Shown here piece after piece: positions 39,175 through 54,963 of a stretch of DNA of 64,000 nucleotides. The notes under the pieces are model-generated. The model saw only the letters and a program-made list of their open reading frames with translations, was not told where the DNA came from and searched no databases. Made by a program: the position numbers and the translations under genes. Each line of letters starts with the position of its first letter. Position 1 is the stretch's first letter. The DNA is from a virus. Location of the stretch: the IMG/VR virus record IMGVR_UViG_3300001202_000001; one strand, 5' to 3'.

Positions 39175-39468
39175 ATGTCTAAACTAAACTGCGCCAACTG
39201 TGGAGAAGTTTTTGTTTATATGCTCGATTGCCCCACAGAAATACTTCACTACGAGGATAACTCGGAGGGCTTCTGCTGTGAAGACTGTATGCACCAATAC
39301 TTCGACATGGAAGAATGTGCATATTGTGAAGAAACTCACGTCTGCGAACATTACGATGAACGTGAAACTTATGAAGGCAGAACTTGTAGTCAAGACTGTC
39401 ATGAGGAAGCCATGTACTTATGGGGCCAAAACCACGGCGACCCTAACTACGAACACAGGACGTACTAA
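39175..39468 (+). CDS. Acidic Cys/His-rich (zinc-binding-like) protein
   Basis: 97 aa with 11 Cys including CANC and CCEDC. Many Asp/Glu/His. GGAGG RBS. Its stop is 1 nt before the macro domain start. Confidence 0.6.
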   Translation: MSKLNCANCGEVFVYMLDCPTEILHYEDNSEGFCCEDCMHQYFDMEECAYCEETHVCEHYDERETYEGRTCSQDCHEEAMYLWGQNHGDPNYEHRTY

Positions 39469-39469
39469 G

Positions 39470-40015
39470 ATGAAAATTCAAATCATAAAAGGCGACATAA
39501 CACGGGTTGAAGCTGATGTAGTTGTAAACGCTGCTAACAACCTTCTGCGTAATGGTGCAGGAGTATGTGGTGCAGTTCACAAAGCTGCTGGCCCTGAACT
39601 TGAAGAATGGTGTAACCACTTCATGCGTAATCGCAATGAGATAGAGATTGGAACAGTTCCAATTTCACCTTCCTTCAACATGGAAAACTGCTCACACATA
39701 GCTCATACAGTCGGCCCCATCTATCAAAACTGGCATGACCTGAACGAGGCTTTACTAGAAGCGGCCTACCACTCAACATTTATCGCAGCTTCCAAGATGG
39801 GTGCAACATCTATAGCGTTCCCTTGTATCTCAACAGGCATCTATGGTTACCCACCTGAAAAAGCCGTGAAGGTAGTTAGACAAGCTCTACTAGATACAGG
39901 CTTTAAAGGGTCAGTAAAACTTGTATGTTTTTCTGACAGTGACTACGCCCTATATAAGAAGGTAATTAAACCTTTTTCCTTAAAGATTTCAAAGACTTAC
40001 AGAAAGTTCTTATGA
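39470..40015 (+). CDS. Macro domain protein (ADP-ribose binding/hydrolase fold)
   Basis: Start moved to ATG 39470. IIKGDITRVEADVVVNAANNLLRNGAGVCGAVHKAAG ... AFPCISTGIYGYP are canonical macrodomain motifs. Confidence 0.85.
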   Translation: MKIQIIKGDITRVEADVVVNAANNLLRNGAGVCGAVHKAAGPELEEWCNHFMRNRNEIEIGTVPISPSFNMENCSHIAHTVGPIYQNWHDLNEALLEAAYHSTFIAASKMGATSIAFPCISTGIYGYPPEKAVKVVRQALLDTGFKGSVKLVCFSDSDYALYKKVIKPFSLKISKTYRKFL

Positions 40016-40599
40016 TTATTTCAGAGCAAAAATTCATCCAATATCTAGCACTCATGGGCGCAATGTTTATGGTGATAGGTTTTGCAAGTGGACGCTGGAC
40101 AGCAGCGCCAGAAATTAAAACAGAGTATGTTACAAAAACTCGGACAGAAGTTAAAATTGTCCGACAATTCGTAACAAGCAATGTTGAACGAGAATGCCTA
40201 GCACAAGCGATATATTCCGAATCTCGGTCAGAGTCCCAGCTAGGACAATTAGCCGTTGGTTCCGTTATTATGAACAGAGTTAGCGATAACCGATACCCTG
40301 ACACAATCTGCGGTGTGGTAGAATATAAGAATAAGGGAGTTTATCACTTTTCTTACCAATACAGAAAAGACCCTAACTTTTACCATACAGCCAGAGTATT
40401 TGCAAACATGCAGGTCTCTGCTATTGAGTTAGAAGCTAGGGAGAAAGCATATGAAGTGGCTGATAAGATTTTGGATGGTGAGCGTAATTTGCCAGAAACT
40501 TCTCTCAATTACCATAGCACTGCTGTCTCACCTGATTGGGCAAAAGACCTCACTTTTTATAAACAGATAGGGTTACACAAATATTACACAGGATTTTGA
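40012..40599 (+). CDS. SleB/Hydrolase_2-type cell wall hydrolase with N-terminal signal-anchor (SAR-like endolysin)
   Basis: 195 aa. N-terminal TM YLALMGAMFMVIGFASG. CLAQAIYSESRSESQLGQLAVGSVIMNRV...YPDTICGVV motif. Confidence 0.8.
   Translation: MIISEQKFIQYLALMGAMFMVIGFASGRWTAAPEIKTEYVTKTRTEVKIVRQFVTSNVERECLAQAIYSESRSESQLGQLAVGSVIMNRVSDNRYPDTICGVVEYKNKGVYHFSYQYRKDPNFYHTARVFANMQVSAIELEAREKAYEVADKILDGERNLPETSLNYHSTAVSPDWAKDLTFYKQIGLHKYYTGF
40232..40247. repeat. Degenerate palindrome-family copy: AGTCCCAGCTAGGACA
   Basis: Two mismatches to the consensus, inside the endolysin gene. Confidence 0.4.
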
Positions 40600-41003: not shown

Positions 41004-41053
41004 ATTAGTTGTTGACAGCCACATATAATCCAGAGTAAGACGTGCAAATCAAT

Positions 41054-41130
41054 TCCCTACGGCCCCGACTGGCATGGGGGAAGCACTGTTAATGCTTTCG
41101 TTCTTGGTTCGAGTCCAAGGTAGGGAGCCA
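41054..41130 (+). tRNA. tRNA-Asn (GUU), CCA encoded
   Basis: Acceptor TCCCTAC/GTAGGGA. D stem CCCC/GGGG. Anticodon arm AAGCA-CTGTTAA-TGCTT. T arm CTTGG-TTCGAGT-CCAAG. G at position 8 is unusual. Confidence 0.8.
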
Positions 41131-41150
41131 AACAAAATGGAGAATATATT

Positions 41151-41258
41151 GTGAGCAACGCAATGACAAAACGAAATACAAAAGCTCACTTCCATAAGGG
41201 AGTGTTCTCCCGTGCCTGTATCAACCACCTATCACTAAACCCCCAACCGACTCTGTAA
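41151..41258 (+). CDS. Possible 35-aa basic peptide between tRNAs
   Basis: GTG 8 nt after GGAG. VSNAMTKRNTKAHFHKGVFSRACINHLSLNPQPTL. Could equally be non-coding spacer. Confidence 0.25.
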   Translation: MSNAMTKRNTKAHFHKGVFSRACINHLSLNPQPTL

Positions 41259-41263
41259 ATATA

Positions 41264-41338
41264 CAGGGACGAAGAGGCTGGGTCATCGCTATGCTTTGGA
41301 AGCACTGAAGTCGGGTTCGATTCCCGAGTTCCTGACCA
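41264..41338 (+). tRNA. tRNA-like element with UGG (Pro) loop; possibly a degenerate or pseudo-tRNA
   Basis: Good acceptor CAGGGAC/GTTCCTG, T arm TCGGG-TTCGATT-CCCGA and CCA. The anticodon stem pairs only 3 bp around TTTGGAA and the D stem only 2 bp. Confidence 0.35.
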
Positions 41339-41339
41339 A

Positions 41340-41414
41340 TGCGGCGTAGTTTAGTGGTAAAACGTCGGAATTTGACTCCGAAGAGCGCTGGTTCGAATCC
41401 AGCCGCCGCATCCA
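41340..41414 (+). tRNA. tRNA-Gln (UUG), CCA encoded
   Basis: Acceptor TGCGGCG/CGCCGCA. D arm GTTT-AGTGGTA-AAAC. Anticodon arm TCGGA-ATTTGAC-TCCGA. T arm GCTGG-TTCGAAT-CCAGC. Confidence 0.85.
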
Positions 41415-41435
41415 AAATGTCAAAACAGAATCTAA

Positions 41436-41511
41436 TCTAGGTAAAGTAGAATGGTTGACACGCTTGCTTGTGACGCAAGAGCATGAGGTTCGAATCCTCT
41501 ACCTAGTACCA
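41436..41511 (+). tRNA. tRNA-His (GUG)-like, atypical
   Basis: Perfect anticodon arm CTTGC-TTGTGAC-GCAAG and T loop TTCGAAT. There are U.U mismatches at 1:72 and 49:65, and the D stem pairs only about 2 bp. Confidence 0.5.
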
Positions 41512-41516
41512 AATAA

Positions 41517-41606
41517 GGACTCGTGAACCGAGTGGTCGAAGGTATCGGACTTTTAATCCGACGAGGTTTATCCTCCGCGTGGGTTCAAATCCCACCGAGT
41601 CCTCCA
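41517..41606 (+). tRNA. Class II (long variable arm) tRNA with UUU anticodon
   Basis: Acceptor GGACTCG/CGAGTCC (7 bp). Ser/Tyr-like D arm ACC-GAGTGGTCGAA-GGT. Anticodon arm TCGGA-CTTTTAA-TCCGA. 17-nt variable arm with GAGG/CCTC stem. T arm GTGGG-TTCAAAT-CCCAC. U73 then CCA. Confidence 0.7.
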
Positions 41607-41683
41607 AAAATGCAAGGCGGCTGTCCCACGCAGTAGGTAAGTCTTAGGGGTGACACTAAGATGGAATATAGGGACACACTTAT

Positions 41684-41759
41684 AGTACGGTGGCCGAGGT
41701 AGTTTAGGTGCTGGATTGCAAATCCAGTTACGTGGGTGCAACTCCCACTCGTACTTCCA
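41684..41759 (+). tRNA. tRNA-Cys (GCA), CCA encoded
   Basis: Acceptor AGTACGG/TCGTACT (one G.U). Anticodon arm CTGGA-TTGCAAA-TCCAG. T arm GTGGG-TGCAACT-CCCAC, where G at position 55 is unusual. Confidence 0.7.
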
Positions 41760-44061: not shown

Positions 44062-44315
44062 GAAAACCCTTCCCATTTACCTTACTCGTTAGTGCACGAG
44101 ACGAGGATATAACTCCCGTAATCCAAACTGCCATTGGTAAATATATCCAAGAGGTAGCAACACAAATATACCCCACTGCCCCCGCTGCGGACATTGAGCG
44201 TATTTATCGACAGCAGCATCAACCACACTACGAGGCACTTGCCCTCTTAATTACAAAGGAACTAAAAGACTATGCCAAAACTTCTACCTCTAATCCTAGT
44301 AGGGGGACTACCTAA
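44058..44315 (+). CDS. Hypothetical protein
   Basis: 85 aa ORF with an ATGA overlap with the HNH stop. Confidence 0.5.
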   Translation: MRKPFPFTLLVSARDEDITPVIQTAIGKYIQEVATQIYPTAPAADIERIYRQQHQPHYEALALLITKELKDYAKTSTSNPSRGTT

Positions 44316-44781
44316 ATCAGGAAAATCCTCTTTCATCAACCGAATTGCCCCTTCAATAAAAGGAGTAAAGGTTTTCAATGATGAAAGCTATGTATCACAG
44401 GTCAACCCACGAGGCCGAGACTACGCCCTAGACTACGCAGAAAATGCTGAAAATCTTGTCAGGCAAGCAATGGTTAAGGATGTTGCACTAGCGGCTTACA
44501 ACAGAAAACCTGTTATTGCTGAAAGCAGCTTTTTTGTCGATGCAGCCATTAGAGCAGAGTATCGTCAAAAGACTTTAACTCGTGACCATATGCCTATCTA
44601 TGTGTCAGTTTTTATCCCTGAAAAAATCAGGAACAAAAACAAGGTACTTGACAAGTACACAGAAGCTGATAACCAAATGCTGATGCAACGCAACAAACGG
44701 CCTCGAAAGGGCGAAGGATTTGTTGTCATGTCAGTGAGAGAGGTGATTGAATACCTCAAAGAGTATAATGGAACTATCTAA
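44272..44781 (+). CDS. P-loop kinase (polynucleotide/nucleoside kinase-like)
   Basis: 169 aa. Walker A GGLPKSGKSSF, and PVIAESSF comparable to the T4 Pnk kinase-domain layout. No phosphatase domain. Confidence 0.55.
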   Translation: MPKLLPLILVGGLPKSGKSSFINRIAPSIKGVKVFNDESYVSQVNPRGRDYALDYAENAENLVRQAMVKDVALAAYNRKPVIAESSFFVDAAIRAEYRQKTLTRDHMPIYVSVFIPEKIRNKNKVLDKYTEADNQMLMQRNKRPRKGEGFVVMSVREVIEYLKEYNGTI

Positions 44782-44992
44782 ACTTTTGAGAGCCGTGAGG
44801 AAACAAGCTATCAACGAATGTCAGGCTCTGGTTCGTAAGAACCCTGACGACGATAGATATGTACTCGCGGCTCGAATGTCAGACTTGAAATTACTCAAGC
44901 CTTTGACGCCAGAAATTAACACATTAAAACAGGAATACGAAAATGCAACTGAAAAAAGAGAAAATCAAGCACCAGTCGGGAGGACTGTCTAA
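44768..44992 (+). CDS. Hypothetical protein
   Basis: The track start 44747 is TTG. The first ATG 44768 is used (MELSKLLRAV...). Confidence 0.4.
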   Translation: MELSKLLRAVRKQAINECQALVRKNPDDDRYVLAARMSDLKLLKPLTPEINTLKQEYENATEKRENQAPVGRTV

Positions 44993-47237
44993 CGTAACAG
45001 CTTTTGGCCTAGATGCTTCAAGCGCCTCCACTATTATCGGAATGTTAACTCGCCAATACAGTGACCCTGAAATGGCTTTCATTCGCGAAACTTCTTCTAA
45101 TGCCTACGACGCCCATATAGCCGCAGGTACAACTGACAAAGCTTTTGACATTCATATCCCAACTAACTTTGCCCCACACGTAGAAATTCGTGATTACGGC
45201 ACAGGTTTGTCAAAAGACTTCATGCTAAACAAGTACACACAGGTTGGTCACTCAACAAAACGTAAGAGTAACAACCAAATTGGCGGCTTTGGTATTGGTC
45301 GATTGAGCTTCCTAATTGTGACAGAGCAAGCAGCTATTACTTCATATCATAATGGTATGAAAGCCAGCTACACTGTTAATTATGATGCTGATGGTCAGTT
45401 GCTTATCTCTCTTACAGATGAACGCGAGACTACTGAACCTAATGGTTTACGCCTTAAATTCCCTGTACAAACAAACCGCATCAAGGCTTTCCAAGTCGCT
45501 GCTGAAAAATACTTTAGCCGCGTATCTGCAACTCTACCAAACTTCAAAGGTGAACCTTTACAAATTACACCACCTGCCTACTCTCATAAGACAGACCGCT
45601 GGGGTGTACGGACAAATGGTTCAACAGGAGTTATCTATGCTGTTATGGGTAATATCGCTTATCCAGTTAAAACAGACACTCTAAAGTATGATAGCAAATT
45701 TAACGATGTTCGGTCTTTGCTGGACTCACGCCTAGATTTATTCTTCAATATTGGTGAGGTTATCCCTGTGCCAACTCGTGAGAATTTGGATATGTGTGAC
45801 CAAACTGTGGATGGTCTACTAAAAGCTCTGACAGATGCTAAAACAGAACTCGTGACCACTCTTGAAGCACAGATTGCGAGTTCAGCTAACCGCTGGCAAG
45901 CTTACAAAGCTTGGAATCAAATGTATTCCGCAGCGTCTTACGAGTTTGGTGCTGTATTACGTGACCTTGACCTAAAATATAAAGGTGAAGAAGTTTATCG
46001 CATGAAGTTCGACTTCGGTAATATCGTGAAAATGATTGACGACCCCTCTGCTTCTACAGACCCAAAAGACCCTAGCTTTGGAAAGCAGCTTTCTTCCCGT
46101 CAGCTTACTTTCCACTCACGTCGTGAGTCAAGCTGGAACTCAAATAGTAAGTTCTCATGGTCTAAAGGTAACACGGAAGTTAGCTCTAATCACAGAGACT
46201 TCCTGACACACGTATTTATTTACAATGATGTTAAGAAGGGTATTCGCCCAACTATCGACTATAACTTACAGAATGCCTCTACTCGTATCGAACTGGTAAC
46301 TGGCCCACGCGAAGCATGGGATAAGTTTATGGCTCGTGAGATTGACCGTGGTGTCAATAAGAAAGCTTTCCGTTACGCTAGTAAGCTTCTGCCTAAGCCT
46401 AAATCTGCTAAGGTTAAACCAACTAATGTTCAGATAGATTATATCAGTAGCACCAGAAGTCTACACTCCAATCTTTGGGGAAGCTTCTGTAACTACAAAG
46501 ATATTAGTGGTTTTGATGGTAAGCAGTATTATGTTCGGGCTAGTAACTTCTGTGTCGAAGATGATGTACTTGAACTTTATCAGAAGTTAAAGAACTACAC
46601 AAAATTAGGTTTATTAGAACCTATTAACATTATCGTGGTCAACAAGAAAAATGTTCCCTATATCCAAGATGATTGGGAACCTCTTGAAAACTACGTGAAA
46701 GTTGACCCAAAGAAGGTCAAGAAAAAGAAGAGACTGGTACGTCAAGCCCTATACTTGGGTATGAAGAAAGCCTATCTCGCAGACATGCTGTCTGATAACT
46801 TCGAAGACCACAAACTGGTCTCTAGCTCCAGACGATGGAGTGAAATTGCACAGAAGAGGGTCACAACAAAACGTGATAGACCTCTTGGCGCTTTGCTTAA
46901 AGATAATCGTGATGTATTCCTAGCTGTGGAAGACATGCGCTATCTGGTTAACAAACTTAACTCTCAAATTGCAGAGTTAGGAGCCACCCAACCACTACAG
47001 GAATTTTCCCGTCAAGTGATTGGCCGCGAAGGTTGGCTTGAGGACAATGCTTATGAAGCATTGGCTGACTCATATGAGCTTGATTATCAGGCTTTAAGAG
47101 ACGCAGCAACAGCACAGAGTCGAGGTATGGATATTACTGTTGACTATGTAAATTCTCAAGTCTACTACGTCGTGGAACACATGGGAGGTCGAGGAAGATT
47201 TGACCTCAATCAACTTAAAAAGGAAATATCAAAATGA
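44943..47237 (+). CDS. rIIA: rIIA-like protein (GHKL ATPase N-terminus)
   Basis: 764 aa. IRETSSNAYDAH, RDYGTGLS and IGGFGIGRLSFL parallel T4 rIIA VRELITNMIDAH, RDFGPGMS and IGGFGLGSKSPF. Confidence 0.85.
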   Translation: MQLKKEKIKHQSGGLSNVTAFGLDASSASTIIGMLTRQYSDPEMAFIRETSSNAYDAHIAAGTTDKAFDIHIPTNFAPHVEIRDYGTGLSKDFMLNKYTQVGHSTKRKSNNQIGGFGIGRLSFLIVTEQAAITSYHNGMKASYTVNYDADGQLLISLTDERETTEPNGLRLKFPVQTNRIKAFQVAAEKYFSRVSATLPNFKGEPLQITPPAYSHKTDRWGVRTNGSTGVIYAVMGNIAYPVKTDTLKYDSKFNDVRSLLDSRLDLFFNIGEVIPVPTRENLDMCDQTVDGLLKALTDAKTELVTTLEAQIASSANRWQAYKAWNQMYSAASYEFGAVLRDLDLKYKGEEVYRMKFDFGNIVKMIDDPSASTDPKDPSFGKQLSSRQLTFHSRRESSWNSNSKFSWSKGNTEVSSNHRDFLTHVFIYNDVKKGIRPTIDYNLQNASTRIELVTGPREAWDKFMAREIDRGVNKKAFRYASKLLPKPKSAKVKPTNVQIDYISSTRSLHSNLWGSFCNYKDISGFDGKQYYVRASNFCVEDDVLELYQKLKNYTKLGLLEPINIIVVNKKNVPYIQDDWEPLENYVKVDPKKVKKKKRLVRQALYLGMKKAYLADMLSDNFEDHKLVSSSRRWSEIAQKRVTTKRDRPLGALLKDNRDVFLAVEDMRYLVNKLNSQIAELGATQPLQEFSRQVIGREGWLEDNAYEALADSYELDYQALRDAATAQSRGMDITVDYVNSQVYYVVEHMGGRGRFDLNQLKKEISK

Positions 47238-48085
47238 CAAAAACAATTACAACTATCCCACATACATGGACAGGAAATACACTAAGCTTCACCGACCTAC
47301 GGGACGGTGAACAACATGTAGTACCAAACACTCATGTCAGCTACACTCGGATTAAACAAGCAATCCAAGCAGACGACATTGATACTGCGGTTCGCCTGTT
47401 CAACTTCGAAGAAAGTGTTGCAATCCAATCCAACGGGTCTGTAACTATCGAAGACGGTGTTGTCTCTTATAAGGGATTACCCGTGACTAACTCAATCTCG
47501 GAAATGATTGTTCGCATGATGCGTGAAGGTTTAGACTTCCAGCCTCTTGCAAACTTCCTAGCCAAGATTTTGGAAAATCCTTCATACAGTTCTCGTGAGC
47601 AACTGCATGGATTTATTGAGAAGTATCTATTCTCGATTACTCCAGAAGGAAACTTCCTAGCTTATCGTGTCGTTACCCACGATTGGAAAGATAAGCACAC
47701 ACGGTCTATTGACAACTCTGTCGGTACAACTGTTACCATGCCTCGTGATGAAGTAGACGAAAATCCTAATCGGACTTGTTCTGCTGGATTGCATGTGTGT
47801 GGTAGAAGCTACGTTAAGAGTTTCAAACACGGCAATGACAGGCTAACGCTTGTTTCAGTCAATCCTCGCGATGTGGTCGCTATCCCTACTGACTACAACG
47901 ATGCTAAGATGCGTGTATGCGAATACACGGTTATTGGCGAGATTGGCGAAAACTTCCAAGAGAGTGAAGTCTCTCCTGTTGCACGAACTAAGAAAGTTCA
48001 GATGCGCGACAAAAATGGACGTTTCACGTCGCAAATGGCATTCGAGCCTATCCCGAAAGCCGAACTCGACACAAATTGGGACTAG
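47234..48085 (+). CDS. rIIB: rIIB-like protein
   Basis: 283 aa. CSAGLHVCGRSYVKSF...VNPRDVVAIPTDYNDAKMRVCEYTV closely parallels T4 rIIB CSRGLHVCSKSYIRHF...VHPRDVVSIPIDYNDAKMRTCQYEV. Confidence 0.85.
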   Translation: MTKTITTIPHTWTGNTLSFTDLRDGEQHVVPNTHVSYTRIKQAIQADDIDTAVRLFNFEESVAIQSNGSVTIEDGVVSYKGLPVTNSISEMIVRMMREGLDFQPLANFLAKILENPSYSSREQLHGFIEKYLFSITPEGNFLAYRVVTHDWKDKHTRSIDNSVGTTVTMPRDEVDENPNRTCSAGLHVCGRSYVKSFKHGNDRLTLVSVNPRDVVAIPTDYNDAKMRVCEYTVIGEIGENFQESEVSPVARTKKVQMRDKNGRFTSQMAFEPIPKAELDTNWD

Positions 48086-53982: not shown

Positions 53983-54963
53983 ATGTCAAAAGGACACATT
54001 AAATTCCCATCTATCGGTAGCTTTGCTAACATGATTAAATTCAGAGATAGGTTCAGAAGTAAAACAGAGACAGCTACTTTTGGTACTAAGATTAAACTGC
54101 ATGGAACTAATGCAGGAGTTCGTATTAGAGACGGAGAGATTAAAGTTCAGTCAAGAGGACGGGACATTTCTGTAGGTAAGGACAACTATGGTTTTGCTAA
54201 TTGGGTTGACCTACATAAGAGCCACTTCGAAATCGCTCGTCGTTTGTCTGTCACTACCACCAACACTATCATCATCTATGGAGAGTGGGCTGGAGAGGGA
54301 GTACAAAAGAGCGTAGCAGTATCAAAAGCACCTAAAGCTTTCTATGTATTCGCAATCTGTATTATGGCTGCTGGCGGTAGCAAGAGATATATCGTAGAGC
54401 CTAGTGTGATTGAACAATATGTTCCAGCCGCAGAAGGTTTGTACATTCTACCTTGGTTTAAAGAGCCTGTTAAGGTTGACTTCGGCAACTCTTTCAATAC
54501 TCCAGAAGTTGTAGCAACTTACCTGAATGAGGAAGTTGCTAAGATTGATGAAGTTGACCCCTATATAAAAGACCTATACGGAATTGAGGCTGTGGGGGAA
54601 GGACTCGTAGGCTACTGCCTAGACGAGCTTGAAGAGTCAGGCTGGTGGTTCAAGGTTAAGGGTTCCAAGCACACTGTTAACGACGAAGCAAAGATTGCAA
54701 AGGTTCAGAGACGTGCTGGTCAAGAGTACCATGACCTAGCAGAGGCTTTCCTGACAGAGGGACGTTTCAACCAAGCTATCTTCGAGAAGAATTTAGACTT
54801 CGACAAAAAGAACACTGGCCCGTTCCTATCATGGGTGATGCAGGACATTCAGAAAGAGTCTTCTAATGAGCGCGAAGAACTCCAGATTGAATGGAGACTA
54901 TGGGCAGGTATTTTGTCTAAGGGAGCGCGGGAATGGTTCCTAGCGAAGTGTGATGCAGTCTAG
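53983..54963 (+). CDS. Rnl2-family RNA ligase
   Basis: 326 aa. KLHGTNAGV (KxHGTN motif I), IYGEWAGEGVQKSV..AFYVFAI, GEGLVGY and WFKVKGSKH parallel T4 Rnl2 KIHGTNFSL, VFGEFAGPGIQKNV..DFYVFDI, AEGYVLK and AIKCKNSKF. Confidence 0.75.
   Translation: MSKGHIKFPSIGSFANMIKFRDRFRSKTETATFGTKIKLHGTNAGVRIRDGEIKVQSRGRDISVGKDNYGFANWVDLHKSHFEIARRLSVTTTNTIIIYGEWAGEGVQKSVAVSKAPKAFYVFAICIMAAGGSKRYIVEPSVIEQYVPAAEGLYILPWFKEPVKVDFGNSFNTPEVVATYLNEEVAKIDEVDPYIKDLYGIEAVGEGLVGYCLDELEESGWWFKVKGSKHTVNDEAKIAKVQRRAGQEYHDLAEAFLTEGRFNQAIFEKNLDFDKKNTGPFLSWVMQDIQKESSNEREELQIEWRLWAGILSKGAREWFLAKCDAV

Follow-up and report, generated by a model that had tools for sequence, protein, structure and literature searches.

In textbooks and identity reviews, the bacterial tRNAs with a long variable arm (class II) are those for leucine, serine and tyrosine, plus that for selenocysteine (Sec). 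Among tRNAs, tRNA-Lys(UUU) is the one most often attacked by bacterial defense nucleases, including PrrC, AriB of the PARIS system and a bacterial Schlafen, and phage variants of tRNA-Lys rescue infection under such nucleases. AriB also cuts the Asn(GUU) and Thr(UGU) tRNAs, and its contacts include the anticodon stem, the D loop and further parts of the tRNA body. Here, we analyze a gene at positions 41517–41606 of a 64,000-nucleotide stretch of viral DNA (IMG/VR record IMGVR_UViG_3300001202_000001; the whole stretch is referred to below as the window), in which a UUU lysine anticodon is carried by a class II body. We conclude that the gene probably encodes a translating tRNA that accepts lysine, and that it is a new structural variant of phage tRNA-Lys belonging to a widespread family.

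A class II tRNA with a lysine anticodon

ARAGORN calls a tRNA-Lys(ttt) of 90 nucleotides (nt) at 41517–41606 on the plus strand. The Rfam model RF00005 matches 41517–41603 with 56.8 bits (gathering score 29, E = 1.3e-9), and its alignment places CUUUUAA in the anticodon loop and a 14-nt insertion in the variable region. Both programs thus reproduce the fold and anticodon given in an earlier account of the gene made from its letters, which we call the sequence-only reading. That account had listed a 7-bp acceptor stem, a Ser/Tyr-type D arm, a 17-nt arm, the anticodon UUU and an encoded CCA, and direct reading of the sequence finds all these details accurate. It was likewise right that a class II tRNA with a lysine anticodon breaks the usual rule.

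The acceptor stem pairs GGACTCG (41517–41523) with CGAGTCC (41596–41602), and is followed by the discriminator T at 41603 and the encoded CCA at 41604–41606. The D arm (41527–41543) is of the Ser/Tyr type, with a 3-bp stem ACC/GGT enclosing the 11-nt loop GAGTGGTCGAA. In the anticodon arm (41545–41561), the stem TCGGA/TCCGA encloses the loop CTTTTAA with the anticodon TTT at 41552–41554. The variable arm (41562–41578) reads C, GAGG, TTTAT, CCTC, CGC and has a Tyr-like geometry; the T arm (41579–41595) reads GTGGG-TTCAAAT-CCCAC. The acceptor/T branch is the canonical 7/5. Folding by minimum free energy reproduces four helices (acceptor, anticodon, variable and T); the z-score of this single-sequence fold (−1.78) is weak and uninformative, as is usual for a lone tRNA.

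Assignment to the tRNA class follows from the RF00005 score above threshold, the ARAGORN call and the covariation within the family described below, on whose covariance model (R1) the gene scores 92.2 bits. Class II tRNAs have a variable region of at least 10 nt that forms a stem–loop; here it measures 17 nt and forms the 4-bp stem GAGG/CCTC. The anticodon is that of tRNA-Lys, with U34, U35 and U36 in a 7-nt loop together with U33 and A37. What departs from tRNA-Lys is the body, in which the 4–5-nt variable loop of class I is replaced by the 17-nt arm, and this is the novelty of the gene. Four other interpretations were dropped: a Sec-like tRNA (the branch is 7/5, not 8/5), quadruplet decoding (the anticodon loop has 7 nt), an intron (none is present) and a change of genetic code (standard translation yields strong domain matches).

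A sister phage carries an ordinary tRNA-Lys in the same slot

The gene is the fifth of six clustered tRNA genes on the plus strand (41054–41759), in the order Asn(GTT), Pro(TGG), Gln(TTG), His(GTG), long-armed Lys(TTT) and Cys(GCA). A sister phage, represented by the IMG/VR contig 3300002054_000008 (L095), has an rIIA gene 99% identical to that of the window and the same tRNA order, Asn-Pro-Gln-His-Lys(ttt)-Cys. Between its tRNA-His and tRNA-Cys genes stands an ordinary 75-nt class I tRNA-Lys(UUU), so that the long-armed tRNA occupies the place held by a normal tRNA-Lys(UUU) in the sister phage. The flanks of the two alleles are approximately 100% identical, and the differences are confined to the gene itself and a few spacer bases.

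The two alleles also have much in common. Both carry G1G2A3C4/G69U70C71C72, U73, CCA and the loop CUUUUAA with its run of four Ts, a run whose conservation in related phages the sequence-only reading had proposed to check. Their T arms are identical at 16 of 17 positions. Over acceptor and T arm together, the L095 tRNA-Lys matches the long allele at 26 of 31 positions, compared with 18 of 31 for the next best tRNA. A normal Ser or Leu anticodon at this locus in relatives had been named there as a refuting observation; the sister phage has a normal tRNA-Lys there instead.

Between tRNA-Gln and tRNA-His, L095 has about 400 bp of inserted DNA that includes a small open reading frame (L095 3046–3482, compared with window 41415–41436). 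As this insert is missing from the window, the tRNA cluster is a hotspot of cassette gain and loss.

Long-armed tRNA-Lys genes form a conserved phage family

A megablast search of cultured phages with the tRNA region returned no match, and a sensitive blastn search revealed homologous genes of 88–89 nt, annotated as tRNA-Lys, in Rhodobacter phage RcXuper and Microcystis phage Mwe-JY26. RcXuper carries two of them, one with CTT and one with TTT. Pattern scans of IMG/VR yielded 42 contigs with such genes, and ARAGORN was run on all loci. Together with the cultured phages and the genuine matches of a genome scan (see below), these contigs make up a family of 46 distinct long-armed tRNAs with lysine anticodons (36 UUU and 10 CUU) in 41 lineages, nearly all of them phage, with scores of 81–98 bits on model R1.

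The family shows the marks of a maintained structure. In an alignment of 41 distinct homologues, 97.7% of the stem cells in the four standard helices pair, and double compensatory changes occur in 17 of the 20 pairs; the observed values lie beyond those of all 500 shuffles, and pairing in slid controls is 35–52%. MAFFT lost the register of the variable arm, whose pairing was tested separately by a hairpin search with shuffles. All members have a hairpin there, built from 26 different stem sequences, and the best variable stem averages 3.35 bp, compared with 2.61 bp in shuffles (maximum 2.98). The idea that the window gene is an artefact, arising from a sequencing error in the T run or from a decaying Ser, Leu or Tyr gene, has the rarity of the combination as its sole attraction. 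It is refuted by the 46 distinct homologues, which come from independent assemblies and from finished genomes of cultured phages, by the intact, covarying stems and by an Rfam score well above threshold, and we regard its probability as negligible. A mutated Ser or Leu tRNA, one of the explanations offered by the sequence-only reading, is likewise rejected, since the gene is one of at least 46 sequences in a conserved family whose stems covary.

Among the cultured carriers are the phiCbK group, CcrColossus, CcrPW, CcrBL9, CcrSC, RcXuper and Mwe-JY26, and long-armed tRNA-Lys genes are also present in the Ruegeria/Roseobacter phages V10 and DSS3P8. In phiCbK, both lysine isoacceptors are long and adjacent, with 87 and 91 nt according to ARAGORN (88 nt for the first in the database record). 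Within the tRNA cluster regions examined, the Lys tRNAs of phiCbK and RcXuper are exclusively long-armed. In Brevundimonas phages, the match to an annotated tRNA-Lys covers only about 73 nt, and the long arm is not confirmed. The long-armed genes of the cultured carriers are annotated plainly as tRNA-Lys, and the tRNAs appear without comment in the phiCbK genome paper, which states that these phages have no tRNA-Tyr. At two loci, a gene for transfer-messenger RNA (tag ANNNYAPEMAKLAA) adjoins a tRNA cluster that bears the long-armed tRNA-Lys (L012 2104–2491 and L016 4815–5202).

Scanning the genomes of 185,579 species with the Lys pattern gave 41 matches, 33 of which are not tRNAs. Among the 8 real tRNAs, 5 lie within dense tRNA arrays on prophage-like or mis-binned contigs. 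Two genomes of Thermoleophilia, on contigs of 0.8 Mb and 2.8 Mb, each have an isolated long-armed tRNA-Lys(UUU) gene in which CCA is not encoded (L079 6852–6937, minus strand; L087 7181–7266, plus strand), surrounded by thiS–thiG, Mce/MlaD, purH and a MerR/B12 regulator. The two copies differ by 1 nt and lie between diverged flanks; they probably represent a class II tRNA-Lys that is native to the cell. Most known hosts of the phage family belong to the Alphaproteobacteria, in which lysyl-tRNA synthetase (LysRS) is of class I. A link of the family to hosts with class I LysRS is only a lead, Microcystis being a host too. In a literature search that took in few subscription journals, and is thus no proof of novelty, we came across no account of a class II tRNA-Lys or tRNA-Asn from bacteria or phages.

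The acceptor end follows lysine rather than a class II amino acid

Lysine identity resides in the anticodon and the discriminator nucleotide (N73), and transplanting UUU alone confers lysine acceptance; for class I LysRS, as in Borrelia, G2·U71 is the essential acceptor determinant and N73 is marginal (PMC9976931). The class II LysRS of Escherichia coli prefers A73, tyrosyl-tRNA synthetase (TyrRS) needs A73 and U35, and seryl-tRNA synthetase needs G73 and a long arm of serine size. In the phages analyzed here, the discriminator is A73 in all 16 clean tRNA-Tyr genes, G73 in all 20 tRNA-Ser genes and A73 in tRNA-Leu. U73 is confined to Lys tRNAs, short or long, and occurs in none of the Tyr, Ser and Leu genes, and the long-armed Lys tRNAs carry A or U, never the G73 of serine. 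Compared with the short tRNA-Lys of the same phage, the long form has the same discriminator at nearly every locus (U/U at 4 loci from 3 distinct lineages, A/A at 11 loci and one exception). The acceptor end of the window gene, U73 with G2–C71, differs from the E. coli LysRS rule but is identical to that of the normal tRNA-Lys of L095.

Within one phage, the two forms also tend to carry complementary anticodons. Short tRNA-Lys genes that co-reside with a long one mostly carry CUU (13, compared with 3 UUU), whereas the long ones mostly carry UUU (36, compared with 10 CUU; Fisher p = 4e-5), and the anticodons do not overlap in 11 of the 14 lineages with both. In 7 of 16 lineages, the normal tRNA-Lys is the co-resident tRNA closest to the long one in acceptor and T arm, where chance would give 2.5. 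Of 47 long-armed Lys genes, 10 have G2·U71, a pair missing from all 80 Tyr, Ser and Leu genes; the window gene itself has G2–C71. In three of the G2·U71 lineages (L022, L035 and L041), the short Lys genes have a C·A mismatch at pair 2:71. A G·U at this pair is also frequent in phage tRNA-Asp genes.

Measured against the class II amino acids, the window gene shares with tRNA-Tyr the type of variable arm and the G1–C72 pair, but has U73 rather than A73 and UUU rather than GUA, so that only U35 of the tyrosine anticodon is retained. It departs from tRNA-Ser in its U73, its 4-bp variable stem and the 3 unpaired nucleotides on the 3′ side, and from tRNA-Leu in its U73 and in the unpaired nucleotides on both sides of the stem (1 nt 5′ and 3 nt 3′).

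These features bear on the mis-sense tRNA proposed by the sequence-only reading, which would keep its original class II identity and insert tyrosine (or serine or leucine) at AAA and AAG. There are precedents in the nev-tRNAs, which are charged with leucine (PMC3333845), and in the allo-tRNAs, charged with serine or alanine, and the TyrRS elements U35, G1–C72 and a Tyr-type arm persist in the window tRNA, as does A73 in many other family members. However, its U73 is neither the A73 critical for tyrosine and leucine nor the G73 of serine, the arm geometry excludes the Ser and Leu types, and N73 follows the normal tRNA-Lys of each phage. Moreover, the positional allele is a normal tRNA-Lys and the long form completes the lysine isoacceptor set. 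Lysine accounts for 6.9% of the codons of the window phage, with AAA and AAG evenly used, so that substitution at these codons would damage every phage protein. Standard translation gives strong family matches, such as 383 bits for its thymidylate synthase (ThyA). We therefore consider mis-sense decoding very unlikely.

The same observations weigh on a second proposal of the sequence-only reading, that of a nuclease-resistant or decoy lysine tRNA. The lysine part is well supported and the resistance part plausible; a decoy is unlikely, given the Lys-type acceptor end and the way in which the gene complements the short isoacceptor. A tRNA that does not translate might soak up an anticodon nuclease or toxin, or serve as an attachment (att) site or primer. 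A canonical lysine anticodon loop on a foreign body and the abundance of tRNA-targeting defenses would suit a decoy. A decoy could do, however, without a 7/5 branch, without an encoded CCA and without a Lys-type discriminator that changes together with that of the normal tRNA-Lys; nor would it need complementary anticodon coverage or have to replace a normal tRNA-Lys in its own slot. As for an att site, the gene lies inside a tRNA cluster, with no integrase or att context. Taken together, such non-translating roles appear highly improbable.

A Tyr-type core and the question of descent

The D-arm motif of the family, CCGAGNGGNNNANGG, is generic to serine and tyrosine tRNAs: in a sample collected without anticodon bias, it occurs in at least 69 Ser and at least 30 Tyr phage tRNAs. 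The variable arms are more telling. The long Lys arm has 1 unpaired nucleotide on the 5′ side, a stem of 3–4 bp, a tetraloop in 36 of 46 members (GNRA in 32 of 46) and 3–4 unpaired nucleotides on the 3′ side, often CAYC. The Tyr arm is built alike, with 1 nt, a 3-bp stem, a loop of mostly 4 nt and 3 nt. In Ser, the stem is longer (mostly 1 nt, 5–7 bp, a loop of mostly 4 nt and 1 nt), and in Leu no nucleotide precedes it (0 nt, mostly 4 bp, a loop of mostly 4 nt and 1 nt). The window arm measures 1/4/5/3 in the same order.

The isotype test was inverted, with genes scored on the Lys-family model, to avoid circularity, since a pattern based on that family had served to find the Tyr genes of L003–L017. 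Genes from the unbiased sample gave like values for Tyr (76.6, 75.4 and 71.5 bits) and Ser (73.7, 72.2 and 68.5 bits), and at most 62.5 bits for Leu. Isotype assignment by covariance model was accordingly dropped, as it fails to separate a Tyr from a Ser origin. Since neither model scores nor the D-arm motif discriminate, it is the arm geometry that argues for descent from Tyr rather than Ser. The long tRNA-Lys looks chimeric, with a lysine top half and anticodon loop on a Tyr-type core. A 78-nt tRNA-Lys(UUU) with a Ser/Tyr-type D arm and a short variable loop (L073 1646–1723) may stand midway between the two types of body.

Other anticodons occur on the same body, and the discriminator of these long-armed phage tRNAs usually matches the amino acid of the anticodon. 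Long tRNA-Asn(GUU), including the 87-nt tRNA-Asn of phiKZ-type phages, carries G73; long tRNA-His(GUG) has C73 and an extra 5′ G; long tRNA-Cys(GCA) has U73 in two of three cases and A73 in L100. Long Trp (CCA) and Glu tRNAs have G73, long Gln has U1–A72 and G73, and long Met has A73; Thr(UGU) and a CUA suppressor are also found on this chassis. Such anticodon-matching features fit charging defined by the anticodon rather than a retained class II identity. The presence of all the expected single-step neighbours of GUA (GUU, GUG, GCA and CUA) suggests descent by anticodon shift.

Among the long tRNA-Asn genes, that of Pseudomonas phage OMKO1 (L097 1500–1586) has 87 nt, the arm U-GGC-GAAA-GCC-CACC, U1–A72 and G73, and the match recurs in PA1C, phiHQ and other phiKZ-type phages. 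Further examples are L010 3375–3462, L021 3840–3926 (which scores 86.2 bits on the Lys-family model), L048 5732–5823 and L128 4717–4803 and 9473–9559. The long His, Cys, Trp, Glu, Gln, Met and Thr genes lie at L048 5830–5919, L007 2866–2952, L050 8603–8688, L049 4961–5049, L003 4426–4512, L045 3323–3407, L033 2411–2498, L100 517–602, L138 11014–11096 and L188 5801–5889. A 91-nt long-armed CUA amber suppressor on a 435-kb viral contig, from a jumbo phage (L009 8018–8108), may relate to stop-codon recoding. A different kind of arm is seen in tRNAs of 90–96 nt called as Ile(UAU), which have a long extra hairpin with the conserved loop CCAGAT(T/C)AG in four of five (L003 4521–4612, L006 8439–8528, L025 11562–11656, L028 903–993 and L045 3725–3820).

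Nuclease evasion and neutral remoulding as possible reasons for the class II body

As an overall explanation, we moderately favor a functional lysine isoacceptor of the phage, a tRNA-Lys(UUU) with a class II body, and a role of that body in defense. The host LysRS would charge the long tRNA, which is plausible because lysine identity rests almost wholly on the anticodon and acceptor end, with a minor part for the body, and the charged tRNA would read AAA and AAG during infection. The foreign D arm, the foreign anticodon stem and an arm protruding near the AriB cut site may make it a poor nuclease substrate while lysine decoding is kept. The UUU bias, the existence of Asn and Thr versions and the Rnl2-type ligase of the window phage (see below) fit nuclease evasion. 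Taken by itself, the view that this body evolved as a protection against defenses aimed at tRNAs is a tentative proposal.

Several considerations weigh against this explanation. The U73 of the window gene is not the A73 preferred by the class II LysRS of E. coli, and the LysRS of its host could be of either class. Class II LysRS approaches the tRNA from the variable-loop side, and a long arm might hinder it. In 27 of 47 family members, A73, U35, G1–C72 and a Tyr-type arm occur together, so that partial tyrosylation is possible. Within the anticodon stem–loop of the window tRNA, C41 differs from the E. coli target (A41), but U39–C40 is unchanged and the loop CUUUUAA is the canonical PrrC target, so that resistance is not evident from the sequence. 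The sister phage L095 manages with a normal tRNA-Lys. Descent from Tyr GUA by way of Asn GUU to Lys UUU, and not selection, may lie behind the excess of UUU anticodons over CUU, and retention of the arm may only reflect its co-adaptation with the 3-bp D stem. Finally, class IIb synthetases read little beyond the anticodon and N73, and neutral remoulding suffices to account for the dominance of Lys and Asn.

Such remoulding from tRNA-Tyr is the main rival to nuclease evasion. It would start from a duplicated phage tRNA-Tyr, whose anticodon shifted from GUA through GUU and UUU to CUU while the acceptor end was adjusted. The product would work as a tRNA-Lys and its arm would confer no benefit, persisting because LysRS and asparaginyl-tRNA synthetase (AsnRS) ignore the body and because of a structural tie between arm and class II core. 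In line with this course of events, the one-step derivatives of GUA (Asn GUU, His GUG, Cys GCA and the CUA suppressor) share the chassis, the re-scaffolded set is dominated by Lys and Asn, both with an identity defined by anticodon and N73, the long Asn gene of L021 scores close to the Lys family and the sister phage does well with the normal allele. On the other hand, the family is both old and varied; its 26 different variable stems pair in every case, a GNRA tetraloop is kept in most members and a conserved CAYC-like tail comes after the stem. The top half is Lys-like and not Tyr-like, which requires more than an anticodon shift, and the strong bias towards the UUU isoacceptor matches the target of the defenses. 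We judge a purely neutral origin to be rather unlikely.

The preferred explanation, nuclease evasion by a working tRNA-Lys, can be extended beyond lysine. Phages and at least the bacterial class Thermoleophilia might rebuild class I-type tRNAs on a modular, Tyr-type class II chassis with their identity kept, and in phages this would be an immune-evasion device; in this general form, the idea is doubtful. The new body would be given above all to Lys(UUU/CUU) and Asn(GUU) tRNAs, with His, Cys, Trp, Thr and other tRNAs receiving it as well. They could then be invisible to nucleases or toxins that read the body, or to an enzyme of the phage itself that degrades host tRNAs, and synthetases reading only the anticodon and N73 would still charge them. 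If true, this would overturn the rule that equates class II with Leu, Ser, Tyr and Sec, and the arms race over tRNAs would gain a structural layer beyond that of point mutations.

The window phage and its neighbouring genes

The window phage has a genome of approximately 80 kb with 43% G+C. It encodes a capsid, a gpA-type terminase, a primase–polymerase/D5 helicase, an SNF2 helicase and a family-A DNA polymerase. Other genes specify an SbcC-like ATPase, thymidylate synthase, rIIA, rIIB, a cell-wall hydrolase, a Macro-domain protein and an RNA ligase of the Rnl2 type. The terminase shows no more than 43% identity with the terminases of Achromobacter phage JWF, Pseudoalteromonas phage KB12-38, Caulobacter phage Seuss and several Acinetobacter phages.

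The RNA ligase (53983–54963, plus strand) is related to T4 Rnl2 (Pfam PF09414; phrog_548; PDB 2hvq, E = 4e-7) and hints at RNA or tRNA breakage as a pressure on the phage, a link that we infer. A small P-loop kinase-like protein (44272–44781, plus strand) is a possible polynucleotide kinase, with a weak match to AAA_33 below the Pfam cut-off and no relative found in the PDB. As the evidence for this kinase is weak, a complete RNA-repair pathway is not established. The Macro-domain gene (39200–40015, plus strand; PF01661, 113.9 bits) lies about 1 kb upstream of the tRNA cluster, with the cell-wall hydrolase gene (40012–40599) in between, and rIIA/rIIB occupy 44943–48085. The ligase, the kinase-like protein, the Macro-domain protein and rIIA/rIIB may together form a tool set for RNA repair and anti-defense.

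A scan for promoters and terminators around the tRNA cluster gave nothing above shuffles, and no promoter is claimed. The motifs TTGACA and TATAAT occur at 41012–41029, 25 nt upstream of tRNA-Asn, and are kept in L095; their spacing is only 6 nt, so that they form no canonical sigma-70 promoter.

Comparison with known systems

Conserved, covarying long-armed tRNAs that behave as tRNA-Lys are an exception to the rule by which class II comprises Leu, Ser, Tyr and Sec. They bear on the extent to which LysRS and AsnRS disregard the tRNA body, on the ways in which tRNA genes switch isotype and on the arms race around tRNA-Lys(UUU), the target of PrrC, PARIS and Schlafen, in which a long-armed version may let phages go on translating when bacteria destroy the normal tRNA. 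Their occurrence in the model phages phiCbK and CcrColossus, along with the long tRNA-Asn of phiKZ-type phages, makes these questions testable in tractable systems. If the extra arm blocks nucleases, it would provide a new design rule for nuclease-proof therapeutic phages, and the long-armed body may offer a chassis for orthogonal tRNAs. For annotators, the family is a warning that "tRNA-Lys" calls can hide a structurally aberrant class.

The closest functional counterparts are the tRNA-Lys(UUU) of phage T5, which acts against AriB of PARIS, and the tRNA-Lys of SP15 and other phages, which acts against PrrC170. Like the window gene, these are phage-borne UUU tRNAs within a cluster, and they replace or supplement the cut host tRNA. 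The window gene also shares C41, one of the two resistance substitutions of T5 (U39A and A41C), with U39 unchanged. In contrast, the T5 and SP15 variants are class I tRNAs with point changes in the anticodon stem–loop, whereas the window gene has a different D arm and anticodon stem and a 17-nt arm.

In structure, the closest relatives are the tRNA-Tyr of bacteria and phages, which have in common with the window gene the D-arm motif, the 3-bp D stem, the arm geometry (1 nt, 3–4 bp, a tetraloop and 3–4 nt), U35 and G1–C72. The differences lie in the anticodon (UUU instead of GUA), the discriminator (U73 instead of A73) and the Lys-like top half.

The nematode nev-tRNAs and eukaryotic nov-tRNAs are likewise class II tRNAs with the anticodon of an amino acid served by class I tRNAs (Gly/Ile and others). 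However, nev-tRNAs keep a leucine identity and are mischarged with leucine in vitro (PMC3333845), whereas the acceptor features of the phage long-armed tRNA-Lys follow the anticodon; moreover, nev- and nov-tRNAs are eukaryotic and the long-armed Lys family resides in phages. Similarly, the allo-tRNAs and the irregular tRNAs held in the tRNA clusters of alpha-proteobacterial phages, which were mined from metagenomes, combine a long arm with non-Ser anticodons (Mukai et al, 2017; PMC5389517). The allo-tRNAs have an 8/4 or 9/3 branch, a long D stem and a Ser or Ala identity, in contrast to the 7/5 branch, 3-bp D stem and Lys-type ends of the present family.

Alloacceptor tRNA remoulding, a shift of anticodon after gene duplication, is known in mitochondria and eukaryotic nuclear genomes. 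As in the window gene, the body of one isotype there serves another amino acid. To our knowledge, the described cases remain within one structural class. The long-armed Lys family, in contrast, uses a class II body for a class I-type amino acid, and does so across phages of several bacterial phyla.

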